IMG/VR virus record: IMGVR_UViG_3300037589_000013
Span: 1-52,352 of that record
DNA length: 52,352 nt
From: a virus
Taxonomy: Duplodnaviria > Caudoviricetes
Direction: 5' to 3' (one strand)
Part shown: piece after piece, positions 36,000-50,369 of the stretch
Numbering within the stretch: position 1 is the first letter of the stretch
How the letters are laid out: every line of letters starts with the position of its first letter
Made by a program: the position numbers and the translations under genes
The notes under the pieces: generated by a model
What the model saw: only the letters and a program-made list of their open reading frames with translations
Told to the model about the DNA's origin: nothing
Database searches by the model: none

Positions 36000-36581
36000 T
36001 CACGCGTCGATAATGTCAACAATTATTTTTCGCATTCGTGCAACAGCGTCGTTGAATGTTCCGCTGTTTTCAATTGACCATTCGCATTGTTGACGCAATT
36101 TAAAAATATGGCGTTCACTTTCATGATAATTATCTGTTGATTTTGCAACATTCTCCACATCGGCGCGATACATCGCCACAAAAACCGCACCGGCTTCCCG
36201 CATTGCTTCCATTTCGGACGGGAACCGCACCGCATCAATTATGACATGACGACCAATTGCGCGATGTCTTGCGGCTTGTGCAAGTCCGATGCGCGTCCAT
36301 AATTCTTGCCCGACTAGATCGCGACCCCATTCCGTTCCAAGTGTGGTTGCAGCGTATCGGATCGAATGACCACAAAGCATTTCGAGCGGTTCATTCCATC
36401 GTGATTTATCGTTGAGCAATTCGGATGGAACGCCAATTGCACGCAACATTTGCACAATTGGAGTGCTGAAACTCATTTGCTTAACATCTGCCATATGCGG
36501 AACATCAATAGCGGCGCGCGTGATTGTTGTTTTACCGCTTCCAGCGTATCCGACAATACCGATTAGTTTTCCTTGTTTCAT
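36000..36581 (-). CDS. Deoxynucleoside monophosphate kinase
   Basis: GYAGSGKTT, SF..P...ML, LGTEWGR, IIDAVRFP.E, HESE. Confidence 0.9.
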   Translation of the reverse strand: MKQGKLIGIVGYAGSGKTTITRAAIDVPHMADVKQMSFSTPIVQMLRAIGVPSELLNDKSRWNEPLEMLCGHSIRYAATTLGTEWGRDLVGQELWTRIGLAQAARHRAIGRHVIIDAVRFPSEMEAMREAGAVFVAMYRADVENVAKSTDNYHESERHIFKLRQQCEWSIENSGTFNDAVARMRKIIVDIIDA

Positions 36582-36682
36582 CGCTGCAACCCCAATCGCT
36601 TATAAGCCTCGCAAACAATCATGGCTTGGCCGATTGCGTCGTCTAGCGCGTTATGTGTCGTGCCGTGGTTGAATTGCGTCAT
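36578..36682 (-). pseudogene. 34-aa remnant of a DEDDh 3'-5' exonuclease
   Basis: MTQFNHGTTHNALDDAIGQAMIVCEAYKRLGLQR carries only the ExoIII motif HNALDDA..QA. Confidence 0.65.
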
Positions 36683-36963
36683 GTTGTCGGTTCCTTTCGA
36701 TTTGGACAATAGTTAACAGGTGGGTTGGCACTTGCGCAATCACCACCGCAAATAAGGCATGTTCTATCTCTCACATACCGGTAAAATTCTCCGGTATCTT
36801 CAACACATTCAAAATCAGCTTCCGAGGCATTAATCCGCGCAAGTGCAGAATTGACAGCATACCCAATTGCATCGAATTTTTCATTGATTGTTTCACCGTT
36901 CGGGAATAGAACAACCCAACGTTGATTTGTTTCAAACCAGATACAAACGAATTCATCTATCAT
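36679..36963 (-). CDS. Hypothetical protein with a C-terminal Zn-binding motif
   Basis: GGGAG RBS; CLICGGDCASANPPVNYCP. Confidence 0.7.
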   Translation of the reverse strand: MIDEFVCIWFETNQRWVVLFPNGETINEKFDAIGYAVNSALARINASEADFECVEDTGEFYRYVRDRTCLICGGDCASANPPVNYCPNRKEPTT

Positions 36964-36978
36964 TGCCGCAACTCCCAA

Positions 36979-37569
36979 TTAAATGATCAATTTCTTTGCT
37001 TCTTGCACATACCAATTCATATCAAGATTGTCAAATTTAAAATCCGCCGCATCATTGCAAATTGCGACTTTATAACCCGCTTCAATTGCTGTTTCACGCG
37101 TTTGATGTCGTGATTTATTTTTGGTGTGTATCCTGGCGTCCCATGCTTCCGGTGTTCCATGCGCTTCTAATTCCGCATTGACTGCGAACCATAGAACATC
37201 ACCAACCCCGTTCGCTCGTTTGTATGCGCCAATTTTCGCGCCTTTTGCTGGTGGGCTGGTCTTGACCATTGAACCACCTTCTTTGGCGACGTAATAGCGT
37301 GTTGTTTTCTGAATTGGTTGACCGTCGAACAACAGCACATCCGAACGGTTGACCTTAATCCGCAACATGAAATCAAACATGTCGGTGTGTGCGGCTAGGA
37401 ACGTTTCGGGCGGCACGTTGTACACCATAGCAACCACGGCGGCGCGAATGCTCGCGATGTTTCCTAAATCTTTATGCCATGCGGGCGGCTGCGCTTCTGA
37501 AATCGAGCGCGCGTAATCGAGCGGATCAGGGTGCCAGTAAGCGCCTTTCATTTTATATTTAAGAGCCAT
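36979..37569 (-). CDS. Family B DNA polymerase, C-terminal (thumb) fragment
   Basis: Starts with the K.KG.Y motif; WHKD, FDFMLRIKV.R, TTRYYV, WYVQEAKKL; GAGG RBS. Confidence 0.88.
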   Translation of the reverse strand: MALKYKMKGAYWHPDPLDYARSISEAQPPAWHKDLGNIASIRAAVVAMVYNVPPETFLAAHTDMFDFMLRIKVNRSDVLLFDGQPIQKTTRYYVAKEGGSMVKTSPPAKGAKIGAYKRANGVGDVLWFAVNAELEAHGTPEAWDARIHTKNKSRHQTRETAIEAGYKVAICNDAADFKFDNLDMNWYVQEAKKLII

Positions 37570-38179
37570 CTAGTTTCCTCACTCTTGCGCGGCACATTTC
37601 ATCGAATAATTCTATTGGGTATTCGTTTTTAGCTTTATTTACGATAACACAAACAATTTGAATATTATCATAAGTATAACCTTTTCCACTATCCTTTCGA
37701 TCAATAGACGGTGCAAATGGTCGGTATCGAAAACCATTGGATTTTAAATCAAAAGGAATATTGGTTAATGCACAACAATCATTTTGTAAAGTTGATAAAG
37801 TTTGCAAAATTGTATCATCTAGTTCATACTCCAGGTTTTTCTTTTTCGCTCTTGCTTTTGAAATAATATGCAACATACGAAAAGTACCGGAATAAGTTTC
37901 TCTCCAATTCTTTGCGTTTATACTTAAACGTTCTGAATTTTGATCATAATAATTTCGTTCCCATTTATTATATTTTTCTCTGTTTTCATTTCTGTATTTT
38001 TTATTGTAAGCAGTTCTCTTGTCATTATGCTTCTTTCGTAACGGTTTATTGTATTCTGCAACACAACTCTTACAATAAATATATTTTCCGTCTTTGCGAG
38101 ATTTATCTCTACCAAACTCATCAATTGATTTTTCCAATTGACATTTTGAACAATATTTATTCTTCATATTCTGCAACAT
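37559..38179 (-). mobile_element. HNH-like homing endonuclease gene interrupting the polymerase
   Basis: CSKC...F...CKSC Zn finger; PSIDRKDSGKGYTYDNIQIVC..VN.AK; AT-rich. Confidence 0.88.
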
Positions 38180-39614
38180 ATGAATTTACATCCCTTATCC
38201 ACATTCGAGTATAGTGAACGCTTTCTAAAGTAAGTTTTGTCAAAGCTTCCCAATTGCGCTCTGTGGTCTTAGCGTCATCAAGGTGATCCCGATGGATAAC
38301 ATAGGTAATGCCGTCCGTGTTAGCAGCTATAACACGGACGGTTGGAACCGTCAACAACCATTCAACCAACATCGCGAGCATTAATTGCCCGTTGATAGTA
38401 ATTTGCATTGTAAATTGCGGATCATAAAACGGACTGTAAATATTATTTGTGTTTCCATACGTGCCGTTTGCGGCAAGCTTCAAACTATTTGCTTCAACGC
38501 ATTTTTTACCTTTACGTTTTTGCCAATCTTTCCGTTCTTTGGGTAGATTGGAATATTCCATAACGAATTTATCGCCAAGGTGCGCGGGTGCAAGATTGTT
38601 GACGATGGCGATTGATGGATACAGGCTTGCAACGTCAATATCTCGGATTAACCATTCATCAGTTGCAATAATTCGTTGGCGTTCAACGCTTCCATGAATT
38701 CCACCTGTTCCAAATTTAAAATCAATTCCGTCAACATGTGCTTTCAGACCTGCAAACACGCCTTTGGTAACAATCCGGTCATCATGTTCAAATTCGGACG
38801 GTGTGAGGGTTTGAGCGCGCATATACTGCAAGACGCGGTTGAATTCCGGGTTGTTGAATTGGATGAACGGGAAAATTATATCAGCGAGTGCAACGCGGTC
38901 GCGGATCGTTTGCCGCATAACACGGCGTCCGCTACTGCGATCATAGCACATTTCATCACCTAATCGATGTTCCAGGATTTTAGAGCCGATTTTACTATCA
39001 TTCCAATTAAGCACATCCGGGCCGAATTGCTCGACTTGCGCCAAGCGGAAATCAATGGCTGACATTGAATGGTGTGCAAATGTTTTCGTGCTGGCAACAT
39101 CCCAATCACCATACGGGATTAATTGCCGGTCAATTTGATCTTTGGACAATGGATCGTCAAAGCCTAGCGGGCTTTCAATCACATAAGGCAACCGCATGTT
39201 GATTTGCAGTGCTTTAAGACTGGTTGTTTTTGCTTTATTGTCGAAGTGGTGAATTTTGAACAAATCAATTTGCGGCGTAAATCGATCACTTGCCCAAACC
39301 GTATTAGTGAAACGATCTTGTGATGTAATGATTGATTTAGATTTTGCGTATAATTCAGCGTTTGTAATATTGGGATTTTGCCATATTGCGTGCAACATCG
39401 GATAATCATAATTGATGATATTAAATCCGATCATCGGTGTTTGTGTTGACGCTAACCAATTCAACCATTCGAGCAAAGCGCGCCGGTCGTCGCGATATTC
39501 GGATATCTCCCAAACGGCGCGCACATCGCTATGCAACATTTCCATTGCGAGCGTCCAGACATTCGGCAAACATTCGGTATCGTAAACCGGCGCGTTGTCG
39601 AGTGTGATGGTCAT
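38157..39614 (-). CDS. Family B DNA polymerase, N-terminal part (exonuclease, palm, fingers)
   Basis: YDTE, GFN..NYD, Y...DV (exonuclease); DVASLYPS, KLAANGTYG, NTDG, RDVNSY. Confidence 0.93.
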   Translation of the reverse strand: MTITLDNAPVYDTECLPNVWTLAMEMLHSDVRAVWEISEYRDDRRALLEWLNWLASTQTPMIGFNIINYDYPMLHAIWQNPNITNAELYAKSKSIITSQDRFTNTVWASDRFTPQIDLFKIHHFDNKAKTTSLKALQINMRLPYVIESPLGFDDPLSKDQIDRQLIPYGDWDVASTKTFAHHSMSAIDFRLAQVEQFGPDVLNWNDSKIGSKILEHRLGDEMCYDRSSGRRVMRQTIRDRVALADIIFPFIQFNNPEFNRVLQYMRAQTLTPSEFEHDDRIVTKGVFAGLKAHVDGIDFKFGTGGIHGSVERQRIIATDEWLIRDIDVASLYPSIAIVNNLAPAHLGDKFVMEYSNLPKERKDWQKRKGKKCVEANSLKLAANGTYGNTNNIYSPFYDPQFTMQITINGQLMLAMLVEWLLTVPTVRVIAANTDGITYVIHRDHLDDAKTTERNWEALTKLTLESVHYTRMWIRDVNSYVAEYEE

Positions 39615-39664
39615 TCATTCTCCAATCACCATGGGATGCAGTCATCAACTAATACGCCCGGCTG

Positions 39665-39703
39665 AAAACGATTGCGGCACGGCTCATTGTCAGCCGCGCC
39701 GCA
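39665..39703 (-). terminator. Stem-loop after the SSB gene
   Basis: 12-bp stem TGCGGCGCGGCT/AGCCGTGCCGCA followed by ATCGTTTT. Confidence 0.6.
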
Positions 39704-39725
39704 TCTTTGACAAATCCGGGCGCTG

Positions 39726-40706
39726 TTATCGCGGGCCGGGCATTCCGGGCGGCATTCCACCAGGTGCAGGATAACCGGGCTGTTGCGGCTGTCCTGGCGC
39801 GGGTTGCTGATACTGCGGAGTGCCACCGGGTGCAGGATAACCGGGCTGTTGCGGTGCGGGCGCTCCAGGCTGCACAAACTGTTGATGTGGCGGCGGCATC
39901 TGTCCTGGCGCGGGTTGCGGTGCTGGCGCTCCACCAGGTGCAGGATAACCGGGCTGTTGCGGCTGTCCTGGCGCGGGCTGCGGTGCCGGTTGCTGATACT
40001 GCGGAGCGCCACCGGGTGCGCCCATAGGCGGCTGTTGCGGTGCGGTGCCGGGCATCTGGACACCTGCGCCATCTGCACCGCTCACAGGGGTTGCAGATGC
40101 ACCGGGCGGCAACGCTCGCTGTTGACCACCAAACGCGGCCATTGGGTTGACGCCAGCCGATACAATGGCCGTTCCATAACCGACAAATTCAAGCGCTTGC
40201 GGGTTGACGTAAAGCGATGGCGTATGCGTCCGTTGTGTCGGAACATTCACCACCAAATTCAACGCAACATTCACCCAATCACCGGTTTTCAAATCGGCTT
40301 CCGTCAACTGGTCATAATTGACACCATTGAAGCGATAGAGCGCGGGCGGAAATCCGGTATTGCTCGCAACCGTGATCACATAATGACCGGGATACCCTTC
40401 ACGTTCCGCAAAAGCCTTTCCACCCTGGCGCGGCGTGGCGTCGTCACCATCATCGATCTTCCAAGCGAAATTCTGCGGAACACCGGACGGGAAACCTTTT
40501 GCTGCTTCTGTCTGCATCGCGGGCCATACGGTTGCAAGGAATTCAGCTTTCGGAACCGCCAAACCGAACACATGTTGAATGACCGGTTTACCGTCTTTCA
40601 AAATGATCTGATTTGTTGCCGGGTCTTTCTTTTGCGTTTCCTTGAGTGGATGACCCCAAACAATGCGACCAAGCGCATTAACTTGTGTGCCTTCTGTTGC
40701 TACCAT
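39726..40706 (-). CDS. Single-stranded DNA-binding protein (T7 gp2.5/DUF2815-like) with a Pro/Gln-rich tail
   Basis: GRIVWG, FAWKI.DGD, REGYPGH.V, KTGD.V.V, LYVNP....FVGYG..I; between the nuclease and polymerase genes. Confidence 0.8.
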   Translation of the reverse strand: MVATEGTQVNALGRIVWGHPLKETQKKDPATNQIILKDGKPVIQHVFGLAVPKAEFLATVWPAMQTEAAKGFPSGVPQNFAWKIDDGDDATPRQGGKAFAEREGYPGHYVITVASNTGFPPALYRFNGVNYDQLTEADLKTGDWVNVALNLVVNVPTQRTHTPSLYVNPQALEFVGYGTAIVSAGVNPMAAFGGQQRALPPGASATPVSGADGAGVQMPGTAPQQPPMGAPGGAPQYQQPAPQPAPGQPQQPGYPAPGGAPAPQPAPGQMPPPHQQFVQPGAPAPQQPGYPAPGGTPQYQQPAPGQPQQPGYPAPGGMPPGMPGPR

Positions 40707-43043: not shown

Positions 43044-43604
43044 ATGACCAAAATTTGCACAAAATGTCAAATTTTAAAGGATGAAACGGAATTTAATAAA
43101 CGAACTATCAAGGGGCGTCAATACTATTATAGTTGGTGCAAAGCGTGTGCTAAAATAATGAATGTTGAATTGGCAAGAAAAAGAAAAGAAAAAAGAACAT
43201 TGGCAGAGCAAGAGAAAATTTCTCAAACATCAAGAGAATATTTTAAAATATATTATAGTACGGTCAGAGGTAGGGCAATCCATTTATTGAACAAAGCTAG
43301 AAATCGAGCACGCGGAAAATATGAATGTTCTGTTTCCGTAGATTTTATAATGAAAAAACTAGAAAATAACAAATGTGAACAAACCGGAATTGATTTAGAA
43401 TGGGAGAACACAAACGCGAAACTATCGAGAAATCCCCGATCCCCGTCTATTGACAGAATAGACGCAAACAAGGGATATACTGATGATAATGTACAAATTG
43501 TTTGTACATGGTATAATCTGGCAAAATCTCAATTAACCGATGCAGACATGTTAAAATTCTGTCAAAATGTTGTGGAATTCAACATGAAAAAGAGAGGTGA
43601 ATGA
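43044..43604 (+). mobile_element. Free-standing HNH-like homing endonuclease
   Basis: ICTKC...CKAC; PSIDRIDANKGYTDDNVQIVCTWYNLAK; AT-rich. Confidence 0.88.
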
Positions 43605-43605
43605 A

Positions 43606-44247
43606 ATGAATTTTAACGTGTCGTGCGAAATTTTTGCGAGGCTTGCGGGCGTTACAAATCGTATGCCGGATAACGTCACCAGTGAAGAACGCGGGTTATT
43701 GCGGTGCGTTCGGTTGGAGCGGAAAGGCGGTCACGAATACGCTATCGCGTCCAATCGCAAAGTTGCAGCAATTTATCATCTTGGAACGTCACAAGAGCCT
43801 GACAACGTGGTTCATGTGGCTGTTGATGCAACATTGATCAAACAATGTAATGAAGAAAAGCCGTTCAATTCATCACTTGCGATTACGGTTTTGCCAGAGT
43901 TGCAAATGGCAAGTGCGAAAAGCACACTTGGTTACAATTACCCTGGCAACGTGGCGATTTTTCCAGCTAAAACACCTTTGGACGGATGGCGGTCATGGGT
44001 TCCCGACAAACCGGTTACAGCAACCGTTGGTGCAATGGCTTGGAACATTGAAGATATGGTTGCGCTCAATTCTGCATCGCCAACCGGTCAAATTGCTTTT
44101 CCGCAATTCATTGACGCCAATAAACCGGTTGTTTTGCGTGATATTGGTTCGCCTGATTGGGTTGGTCTTTTCATGCCGAACCGCATTGACGACAACGGGA
44201 AAGCGTACACCGTTGAACCTGCAACATTGCCGGAATGGTTCAAATGA
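43606..44247 (+). CDS. Putative sliding-clamp (beta-clamp-like) protein
   Basis: L..V.LE......IASN...AA, ..WR..VP, GLFMP resemble clamp-like phage proteins; replication context. Confidence 0.5.
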   Translation: MNFNVSCEIFARLAGVTNRMPDNVTSEERGLLRCVRLERKGGHEYAIASNRKVAAIYHLGTSQEPDNVVHVAVDATLIKQCNEEKPFNSSLAITVLPELQMASAKSTLGYNYPGNVAIFPAKTPLDGWRSWVPDKPVTATVGAMAWNIEDMVALNSASPTGQIAFPQFIDANKPVVLRDIGSPDWVGLFMPNRIDDNGKAYTVEPATLPEWFK

Positions 44248-49847: not shown

Positions 49848-50369
49848 ATGCAGATATGCACAAAATGCGGCGTCGAAAAGACGCTTAGTGATTTTTACAA
49901 GAAATCAGACAGTAAACGTGGTGTTAAAAGCGTATGTAAAAAATGCGTTAATCAGCAAATGTTTATCTATTCAAGAAATCGTTATGCAACGGTTCACGGT
50001 CGCGCTTCTCAAATGTTTAATAGTGCAAAATATCGAGCAAAAAAAAGGAATATTTCTTTTGATTTAGATTTTAATTATATTAAATTGCTTGTGGAAATGG
50101 GTTATTGCGCTCAAACAGGTTTAAAACTTGATTTGAATGTTAATGATGAAACTCATTATGGTTTTTTTGCACCATCATTGGATAGAGTTGACGCTAAAAA
50201 GGGTTACACGAACGATAATATTCAAGTTGTTTGTAACATGTACAATATGGGGAAATCAGATGCAGATGAATTAAATTTTATTGCAATGTGCATGGCTGTT
50301 GCAGAACGTAATTCAAACAACCAAGCTGCGATTGATCGTCTTAATGAGTTGCGCAATGCAAAATTATGA
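49848..50369 (+). mobile_element. Free-standing HNH-like homing endonuclease
   Basis: ICTKC..EK...FY...CKKC; PSLDRVDAKKGYTNDNIQVVC..YN.GK; overlaps the primase start. Confidence 0.88.

Follow-up and report, generated by a model that had tools for sequence, protein, structure and literature searches.

A probable free-standing homing endonuclease gene dividing a viral family-B DNA polymerase gene at the palm-thumb hairpin

The DNA considered here (hereafter the window, i.e. the whole stretch analysed) is virus record IMGVR_UViG_3300037589_000013 (Duplodnaviria; Caudoviricetes), a linear record of 52,352 bases, taken whole, with a completeness estimate of 95%. On its minus strand a family-B DNA polymerase (PolB) gene is represented by two open reading frames (ORFs), here termed polN and polC, with an ORF for an HNH-like endonuclease between them. 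We consider it probable, at roughly 0.8, that this nuclease gene is a free-standing homing endonuclease gene embedded in the PolB gene without an intron or intein, giving a two-piece polymerase. The components of the locus, in window coordinates, are as follows.

38157..39614, minus strand: polN, an ORF of 485 amino acids (aa); N-terminal family-B DNA polymerase fragment with the exonuclease domain and palm motifs A, B and C.
38157..38184, minus strand: upstream junction; the polN tail reads ..GAA TAT GAA GAA TAA, and both candidate nuclease starts lie within the polN coding sequence.
37559..38179, minus strand: nuclease ORF, predicted to encode a free-standing HNH-like (beta-beta-alpha-metal) endonuclease; AT-rich; 206 aa from the ATG at 38179.
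37622..37741, minus strand: predicted nuclease core, ..PSIDRKDSGKGYTYDNIQIVCVIVNKAKN.., covering residues 143-182 of the 202-aa product and matched by phmmer to residues 79-118 of PacI (E 0.045).
37577..37580, minus strand: Shine-Dalgarno (SD) sequence GAGG of polC, within the 3' end of the nuclease ORF and 7 nt 5' of the ATG at 37569.
37559..37573, minus strand: downstream junction, CTA GAT GGC TCT TAA; the final nuclease codons are L-D-G-S-stop (..KLDGS and then the stop).
36979..37569, minus strand: polC, the 196-aa C-terminal polymerase fragment (thumb region), with its own ATG; begins MALKYKMKGAY.

polN ends in ...RDVNSYVAEYEE, with its TAA stop at 38159-38157, and polN, the nuclease ORF and polC occupy three different frames. 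The likely nuclease start is the ATG at 38167 (202 aa), where the homologues and the database gene call begin, the alternative being the ATG at 38179; these lie 8 and 20 nt, respectively, before the polN stop. Begun at the former, the nuclease ORF shares 11 nt with polN, and begun at the latter 23 nt; with polC it shares 11 nt. The GC content of the insert is ~0.30, with a third-codon-position value (GC3) of 0.22, as against 0.43 and 0.48 for the polymerase halves and 0.465 for the window. Both junctions are spanned with 0 differences by contigs assembled in two further sequencing runs (X4 records 3 and 4; X5 record 11), which rules out an assembly error peculiar to a single data set; a megablast search of the region against phages, a search for near-identical DNA, returned no match. 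The junction strings and the MALKYKMKGAY start quoted in the original prediction, an earlier note made from the letters of this DNA, are correct on the minus strand, as is its assignment to polC of a separate GAGG and ATG, with the spacing and position listed above.

The two flanking ORFs are consecutive parts of one polymerase. polN matches phrog_1252 ('DNA polymerase') at E 1.7e-140 over profile positions 52-508 of 663, and polC matches the same family over positions 512-648 (E 3.1e-25) as well as phrog_15833 (E 1.4e-31); polN also passes the Pfam family DNA_pol_B (PF00136; E 2.5e-5, 23.7 bits against a cut-off of 23). An exonuclease domain and the family-B motifs A (D..SLYPS), B (K...N..YG) and C (.TDG) are present in polN, in whose alignment D327, Y332, P333, K379, N383, G387, T433, D434 and G435 are invariant. 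With an endonuclease PHROG match lying between consecutive phrog_1252 matches, and with relatives in which the gene is unsplit, the central claim of the original prediction, that a nuclease gene splits a PolB gene here, is borne out, and the pattern goes well beyond chance.

Palm motif C precedes the split point, which is located at the palm-thumb hairpin. The polymerase family profile aligns to archaeal PolB chains at E 4e-4, placing motif A at chain residues 400-436 and motifs B-C at 483-566, and polN ends ~26 profile positions after the latter alignment, near archaeal chain residue 590, close to which we take the PolB thumb to start. Few residues of the region are as well conserved as those flanking the split (N477 and Y479 of polN invariant, D475 and V476 nearly so; K6 and G9 of polC nearly invariant), and conserved sequence is the typical target of a homing endonuclease. 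Structure prediction for the polN-polC complex gave an interface score (ipSAE) of 0.89 in 3/3 runs, against 0.00 for the best of 3 controls, with contact agreement of at least 97% and partner model confidence (predicted local distance difference test, pLDDT) of at least 89; the mark applied is reached by 58/80 solved complexes and 2/110 mismatched pairs, and is a rough guide here, own alignments having been used. The predicted interface joins polN 470-483 to polC 3-11, with the tightest contacts between polN 478-481 and polC 6-11, which would place the cut in the turn of a beta-hairpin. Since both chains are halves of one known fold, this pass is of uncertain meaning, and may reflect likeness to solved PolB structures.

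In the closest phages, Rhizobium phages vB_RglS_P106B (683 aa) and RHph_X2_24 (682 aa) of the genus Rigallicvirus, the polymerase is a single uninterrupted gene whose product is 69% identical to polN and 75-76% identical to polC. Both read through the site, as ..RDVNNYIAEDFDGKLKLKGAYW.. and ..RDVNSYVAESLDGSLKQKGAYW.. respectively, and alignment at RDVN.Y..E..DG..K.KG, the place at which the original prediction had located the break, shows relatives to be uninterrupted exactly there. On a polN tree of 85 rows (quick IQ-TREE) the window falls in a well-supported clade of 5 rows, of which the other 4 are uninterrupted.

A nuclease ORF in such a position could instead be carried by a self-splicing intron, of group I or another type, whose removal would yield a spliced message and one full-length polymerase. 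Group I introns with HNH ORFs are frequent in phage DNA polymerase genes according to PMC2988022, and splicing could in principle restore the frame. Against this, an Rfam scan of positions 36500-40000, which covers the curated Rfam intron families, found no intron at E<=1, its single match being a spurious miRNA outside the insert, and the same scan of 7 related split loci gave 0 matches at E<=0.1. Moreover, the nuclease ORF fills the entire insert and overlaps both would-be exons, leaving no non-coding sequence for a ribozyme core, and the SD and ATG of polC are conserved in relatives of the same nuclease lineage. We therefore agree with the earlier statement that the insert holds no intron and has no room for an intron core, and regard a spliced polymerase as extremely unlikely.

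Alternatively, the parts might be rejoined by an intein, by a split intein (a 'fractured gene') or by long-range ribosome bypass. Endonuclease genes with split inteins on either side have been described from metagenomes (PMC2677866). Here, by contrast, the stops and frame changes between the three ORFs exclude an intein, and the fragment ends carry no intein halves: relative to uninterrupted homologues polN runs 3-4 residues past the homologous join and polC begins 2-3 residues before it, and fragments that end and start within 2-4 residues of the join leave no room for split-intein halves. To our knowledge a ribosome bypass of ~590 nt would be without precedent. The chance that any of these processes restores a single chain seems to us practically negligible.

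The junctions indicate how the element is accommodated in the polymerase coding sequence. Upstream, nuclease codons 1-2 (ATG AAG) are the polymerase letters T-ATG-AAG-A read one frame shifted, and both nuclease ATGs lie in a 7-bp A/U-rich hairpin at 38163-38184 (fold of 38120-38230, whole-stretch z -2.15). Downstream, the nuclease ends in GAT GGC TCT (D-G-S), codons that belong to the polymerase and are read in its frame, and the polC ATG (37569-37567) lies within GATGGC, one frame over; RNA structure at the polC start does not differ from that of shuffled sequences (z -0.45). A short indel downstream of GATGGC both restores the polymerase frame to polC and makes the TAA that ends the nuclease ORF. 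This frame logic had been proposed in the original prediction and stands, as its further statement that the indel is one extra T does not: the span from the D/N-G-S codons to a conserved TGG is 33 nt in RHph_X2_24, 37 nt (+4) in the window and 31 nt (-2) in the split locus L091, for which reason the size of the frame-restoring indel is ambiguous, -2 and +4 relative to the uninterrupted gene giving the same frame. Nor is the event one of this genome alone. L091 carries the SD/ATG/stop overlap of the window, letter for letter over AGAGTGAGGAAA and ATGGCTCTTAAA, reading AGA GTG AGG AAA ATT AAT GGC TCT TAA with polC starting ATG GCT CTT AAA.. and with 6 fewer in-frame bases further on; because it shares this overlap architecture, the frame event is older than the window genome and inherited within the endonuclease lineage. 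It is conceivable, at a little under even odds in our judgement, that the hairpin sequence supplied both starts, in that it contains a pair of ATGs out of frame (GAA T-ATG-AA G-ATG-GC), of which one would serve as start codon for the element itself and the other for polC. A 7-nt direct repeat, TAAATAT, is present at both junctions; it was taken as chance in AT-rich sequence and dismissed, because recombination between its copies would keep the stop.

The same nuclease lineage occurs at the same site elsewhere. A direct scan for the nuclease in viral contigs found one weak relative (31% identity), and a scan of metagenome contigs with the nuclease alignment gave 80 loci, 14 of which carry this polymerase family within the available flank; the remaining 66 show no polymerase in the available flank, many of these contigs being short. 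In 8 of the 14 (L091-L096, L099 and L100, which include 8 of the 10 best-scoring loci) the nuclease directly follows polN residue 483-485, and in L091-L096 (6 of the 8) the next match is polC, from residue 1-6, the contigs of L099 and L100 stopping short of it. The junctions of the embedded loci are alike: the nuclease ATG lies either ahead of the polN stop or across it (across it in L091, L092 and L093), the 3' end of the nuclease runs into the start of polC, and in all 8 the nuclease ORF is fused to polymerase codons at both ends. Compared with the window, the 8 embedded copies have nuclease identities of 36-59% and polN identities of 52-68%, from which it follows that the association of nuclease and site is old. 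Three further homologues without genomic context (P0007, P0010 and P0011) have N-terminal extensions reading ..SQN-MKNK.., where the window reads ..LQN-MKNK..; in the nuclease frame these letters are the polymerase codons for IAEY and VAEY, respectively, which suggests that these homologues come from the same polymerase location. On the evidence of these sequences the window element belongs to a nuclease lineage tied to one polymerase site. In the 6 other loci with a polymerase in the flank the nuclease lies just upstream (L113, L114, L150, L167) or downstream (L108, L153) of the polymerase gene; all 6 are more distant family members, the polymerase directly downstream of the nuclease being unsplit in L113, L114 and L167, and the polymerase match of L150 is broken between residues 296 and the polC part.

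The nuclease itself matches phrog_1035 (E 2.5e-25), phrog_3322 (E 2.6e-24) and phrog_3118 ('HNH endonuclease', E 8.2e-13), families that are named endonuclease VII or HNH endonuclease. Its predicted structure has a pLDDT of 94.2, and its best Foldseek matches, weak as they are, are all to HNH nucleases (PacI first, then Gme HNH 4.7e-2; Cas9 HNH 6.1e-2; Hpy99I, McrA and T4 endonuclease VII at E >0.04). In a large protein collection 34 homologues were found at E<=1e-5, the best being 74% identical. In an alignment of 32 sequences, two of them paralogues encoded by the window, C132, T135, S154, D156, G163, Y164, N168, N177 and C192 are invariant in the family and the cysteines C6, C9 and C32 nearly so; the copy in the window has the family-invariant residues, and the C-terminus ..ARV.K(L/I)(N/D)G(S/G/T) is found family-wide, in most members. 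'HNH-like' is thus a fair label for the predicted nuclease. The two paralogues, at 43047-43604 and 49848-50369 on the plus strand, are free-standing, are 34-38% identical to the inserted copy and have GC contents of 0.33 and 0.34; the phage thus has three copies of an AT-rich nuclease element. The first lies just upstream of an ORF of unknown function (43597-44247) and the second upstream of a primase/helicase-like ORF (50281 onward). When the three copies were compared, the only shared stretch was one of ~36 nt (84-86%) in the catalytic core, and no shared element ends were found.

Interruption of the polymerase at this position is not confined to the nuclease lineage of the window. Among 82 related loci, comprising 80 viral contigs and two Rhizobium phage records (P106B being counted twice, as L001 and L021), 15 are split at the same codon position, with 229-790 nt between the polN and polC matches, and 67 read through; L062, where tblastn missed polC and the locus ends, was checked by eye, and a 129-nt gap in L040 is an alignment artefact. 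None of the cassettes of the 15 split loci resembles the window nuclease. They are the following.

L024, L030, L049, L054, L055 and L082: HNH_3 with an AP2-like domain, at the split site.
L032 (with NUMOD3), L046, L056 and L071: GIY-YIG, at the split site.
L026, L027 and L029: N6_N4 DNA methylase, at the split site.
L017 (2030-2260) and L018 (identical): 77-aa ORF in a 229-nt gap at the split site, with no Pfam or PHROG match.

The methylase ORFs (L026 5317-6156, L027 and L029 3402-4235) encode N6_N4 methyltransferases of 277-279 aa (Pfam E 9e-33 and 5e-26) and overlap the polN end; the ratio of non-synonymous to synonymous substitution rates (dN/dS) for the methylases of L026 and L029 is 0.24. 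In L017 and L018 the 77-aa ORF begins with an ATG that shares letters with the polN stop (ATGA) and closes with a stop that shares letters with the polC ATG (TGATG). Neither of the sister polymerases of this pair, L009 and L016, is split, and both carry a long PVTP..NEPP loop at the hairpin.

Across these loci the split alleles end in ..AEY(E/D/A)E or ..AVYE before the stop and restart with M..(I/V/L)K.KG.., and the distribution of split and unsplit states on the polN tree of 85 rows requires no fewer than 10 changes, of which well-supported branches force 8. HNH_3 alleles share ..ILNVNNYLAEY(E/D)E with its stop and the restart M(A/G)RIKRKGCFEYD, both lacking in their unsplit sisters, and GIY-YIG alleles share ..NNYIAVYE with its stop, likewise absent from unsplit sisters; identity scans of split alleles against sisters show modest shifts in the last 45-90 nt at the junction only. 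Taken together, these patterns are suggestive of short co-conversion tracts, by which the stop, SD and ATG would travel with the cassette.

The split is also found in cultured phages, of which a spread sample was checked (60 of 693 phage records matching a full-length relative). Klebsiella phage vB_KpnM_KpV79 (Jedunavirus; NC_042041) is annotated with a DNA polymerase (507 aa), an endonuclease (278 aa, phrog_681) and a second DNA polymerase (195 aa); its break reads ..RDVNNYIMVIE and a stop, then VKIKRKGCYEY.., at the same codon position and with the nuclease overlapping both halves, and its relative Edwardsiella phage PEi21 is unsplit. Two-piece matches over 2655-2784 nt were obtained for KpV79, pKp383 and KpTDp1, and one-piece matches for Klebsiella phage SBP, which is in the same group of matches (2019 nt), RCIP0080 and Escherichia phage ZCEC13 (~2 kb for the last two). 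Given the KpV79 annotation and these two-piece matches, viable phages live with a split at the palm-thumb site, and public annotations of cultured Klebsiella phages already show it without comment; our literature searches found no paper discussing that of KpV79. In Flavobacterium phage Fpv1 (L171 501-3568) a polymerase of the same family is split elsewhere, after ~357 aa, by an annotated homing endonuclease with non-coding spacers of 223 and 55 nt on either side, an arrangement that might be an intron.

The cassettes at the hairpin site thus comprise the HNH-like family of the window, HNH_3-AP2, GIY-YIG, the phrog_681 nuclease, the N6/N4 DNA methylase and a small ORF, and in these sequences the site has been targeted repeatedly, by no fewer than five kinds of cassette besides the window nuclease. 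From this we put forward, tentatively and as something just short of an even bet, that unrelated cassettes have a common landing site in the turn of the EYE-DG hairpin, between the palm and the thumb in this small but widespread PolB family, that they bring their own stop, ribosome-binding site and start, and that the two-piece state is itself transmissible and spread by homing.

The same observations bear on the order of events. It may be that the gene was already split at the hairpin and that an HNH gene entered the gap later without being the cause of the split, a proposal that concerns origin only and leaves the present-day mechanism the same. In L017 and L018 the polymerase halves are separated here by a 229-nt gap whose 77-aa ORF belongs to no known family, and the presence of at least five unrelated cassette types is what would be expected of a gap serving as a safe landing pad; PMC2988022 voices the same doubt over seg43(25), given that phage 44RR has an untranslated spacer. 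On the other hand, the four nearest relatives of the window are unsplit, the fusion of the nuclease to polymerase codons at both ends in 8/8 loci fits insertion into intact coding sequence better than entry into a spacer, and alleles with the same cassette share junction flanks across polymerase clades, split and cassette travelling together. A late arrival of the nuclease appears unlikely, though conceivable. The original prediction had staked its case on relatives without the insert being unsplit at this position; the nearest relatives of the window are so, and L017/L018, with only the 77-aa ORF and no nuclease, are not.

A further possibility is that the polymerase gene is broken and its fragments are decaying, the phage being defective or using another polymerase. 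The genome is derived from a metagenome, so that the virus may not be viable, and one related locus has an in-frame stop in polN (L092, considered below). Nevertheless, the window halves have no internal stops and are 69-76% identical to relatives, polC is at least as conserved as polN, and the ratios of polC to polN identity to relatives are alike in split and unsplit loci. Where it could be measured, purifying selection on split alleles is strong, dN/dS being 0.10 (polC) and 0.20 (polN) between L024 and L030, and 0.04 (polC) and 0.09 (polN) between L026 and L029. Together with the cultured phages that have the same split, and the assembly of the same sequence in other runs, these values make a decaying gene very unlikely.

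Several results weigh against the interpretation of the locus as a working two-piece polymerase housing a homing endonuclease. With regard to polC, a Foldseek search with this fragment alone (model pLDDT 87.9) found no meaningful match (best E 0.5), and its profile found nothing among PDB sequences; an aligner independent of Foldseek, VIA-align, placed PolB thumb regions in 10 of its 11 top rows (among them P. abyssi 609-742, Pol alpha, Pol II 634-762, herpes simplex virus (HSV) pol, Pol delta, Pol epsilon and RB69 721-881), at Z 3.3-5.3, below the aligner's noise guide. These structural matches are weak and coherent, and we consider polC likely to be the thumb fragment. With regard to constraint, synonymous sites are saturated within the window nuclease lineage, the proportions of differing sites being 0.25-0.33 (non-synonymous, pN) against 0.74-0.86 (synonymous, pS), nuclease included, and giving no dN/dS; and L092, 1 of 7 loci of the same lineage checked, has an in-frame TAG in polN near codon 216 of the match, for which sequencing error, decay or suppression are possible explanations. 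With regard to the nuclease, there is no Pfam match at E<=1, the top Foldseek match (PacI, E 1.2e-3, probability 1.0) has weak template-modelling (TM) scores of 0.35/0.47, and the core, PSIDRKD..GY..DN......VN.AKN, is without the first histidine of the HNH motif, reading S-I-D-R-K-D in its place; nuclease activity is accordingly not assured. The family may rely on a different residue, and PacI too is atypical in its HNH motif. Finally, with regard to mobility, no joint across the insert, as expected of an insert-free allele, was found in contigs of X4, X5, X7 and X8, a result that is no sign of its absence, contigs being prone to drop rare variants, and ongoing mobility is thus conjectural; nor could a co-conversion tract beside the insert be called from composition, because the GC3 of polN is patchy throughout (0.10-0.75) and low GC3 next to the insert is not diagnostic.

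On balance we favour a mechanism in which an element of ~592 nt (38160-37569) lies in the turn of the beta-hairpin between palm and thumb (consensus ..NNYIAEYE-DG-.KRKGAY..). With the nuclease gene embedded without intron or intein, the locus would be expressed as three cistrons on one minus-strand message. polN would terminate 3-4 codons into the element; the nuclease would probably be made at a low level, by ribosomes restarting at the ATG 8 nt before the polN stop; and polC would initiate at its own ATG by means of the GAGG in the nuclease 3' end. The two products could then assemble non-covalently, through pairing of the two hairpin strands, into a working enzyme. In mixed infections the nuclease would cut insert-free alleles, and repair after cutting would copy into them the element together with its ready-made stop, SD and ATG junctions. 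Assembly of the halves, polymerase activity, translational coupling and homing are steps that we infer: the indications for an active two-piece enzyme are indirect, namely the predicted docking, the conservation of the halves and the cultured phages with this split, and so are those for homing, namely the presence of one nuclease family at one site in 8 other contigs with diverged polymerases and the junction flanks shared by alleles of other cassette types.

Comparison with known systems indicates that the kind of arrangement is itself already known, and that the split site differs from the PolB sites named in the literature reviewed. The closest case is KpV79 (gp55/gp54/gp53), a cultured lytic phage with the same PolB family, the same codon position and a nuclease overlapping both halves; it differs in that its phrog_681 nuclease is without similarity to that of the window and its polC starts with GTG. 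Amongst T4-related phages, PolB is split into gp43A and gp43B in Aeromonas phages 25, 31, 44RR and 65 and in Acinetobacter phage 133, as described in PMC2988022 and PMC3061061, and those of phage 25 co-purify and have polymerase activity (PMC2988022). As in the window, the family-B replicative polymerase is encoded there by two cistrons, with an endonuclease gene between them in one case and only a spacer in another: a seg-like gene, seg43(25), is linked to the split gene 43 of phage 25 and an untranslated spacer alone is found in 44RR, which leaves the role of the endonuclease in the split uncertain (PMC2988022). However, gp43A/B is split at the tip of the fingers domain (PMC3061061), and not at the palm-thumb hairpin after motif C; the polymerase is of another PolB subfamily, and the nuclease is a seg-like GIY-YIG enzyme where that of the window is HNH-like.

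The parallel that the original prediction drew with nrdA and mobE of phage Aeh1 is apt, gp43A/B and the same-site split of KpV79 being closer precedents. In Aeh1 (nrdA-a/mobE/nrdA-b) an essential gene likewise has a free-standing HNH gene in its coding sequence, and neither an intron nor an intein is involved; the insert there is also AT-rich, its endonuclease ORF runs into the downstream fragment, and an active enzyme is formed from the two polypeptides (PMC3045599, PMC2988022). The target there is nrdA, and novel C- and N-terminal tails are essential for assembly (Crona et al., PMC3045599), whereas the tails in the window are just 3-4 residues and the halves are predicted to pair via native hairpin strands; furthermore, the Aeh1 insertion is described as a one-off transposition, and the element of the window recurs at the same site in many genomes. 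T4 mobA, at the split topoisomerase subunit (genes 60/39), is also a free-standing HNH endonuclease gene at a gene split relative to other phages, with a 23-bp overlap with the upstream ORF and no ribosome-binding site of its own (PMC2988022). The target gene is, again, a different one. T4 gene 60 also uses translational bypass. In Bacillus phages the HNH nuclease genes for I-HmuI and I-BasI interrupt a polymerase gene at a conserved site (PMC2988022); these lie in self-splicing group I introns and leave one polypeptide, whereas the window has no intron. Our literature searches found no description of the palm-thumb split site in this polymerase family, which is not proof of its absence.

Elsewhere in the replication module, the gene order is exonuclease, Gp2.5-like single-stranded DNA (ssDNA)-binding protein, polN/nuclease/polC, a small ORF and deoxynucleoside monophosphate (dNMP) kinase, which is the order in annotated relatives. 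A terminator-like hairpin of 12 pairs, 9 of them G-C, followed by a T run, lies at 39673-39703 (minus strand), in the interval that separates the gene for the ssDNA-binding protein from the start of polN at 39614; were it to stop transcription, polN would require its own promoter or read-through. The C-terminal third of the ssDNA-binding protein (39726-40100, minus strand) is a long, repetitive tail rich in proline, glutamine and glycine, with repeats ..QPAPGQPQQPGYPAPGG.. and a local GC content of 0.65-0.70 against 46.5% for the genome. Within polN (38157-39614) GC3 swings between its extremes in blocks of tens of codons (0.10 in codons 286-310), which suggests a mosaic gene history beyond the insert.

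The locus thus presents a natural case of an essential replicative polymerase presumably working as two chains cut at the palm-thumb hairpin. A site hit repeatedly by different selfish genes within one polymerase family provides a comparative system for the choice and sharing of sites by homing endonucleases, for the tolerance of gene fission in the absence of introns and inteins, and for the co-transfer of flanking sequence. For annotation and phylogeny pipelines there is a warning, in that a triplet labelled 'DNA polymerase / endonuclease / DNA polymerase' in a phage of this kind represents one functional gene; and the palm-thumb hairpin, as a permissive split point, could be tried in engineered PolB enzymes.

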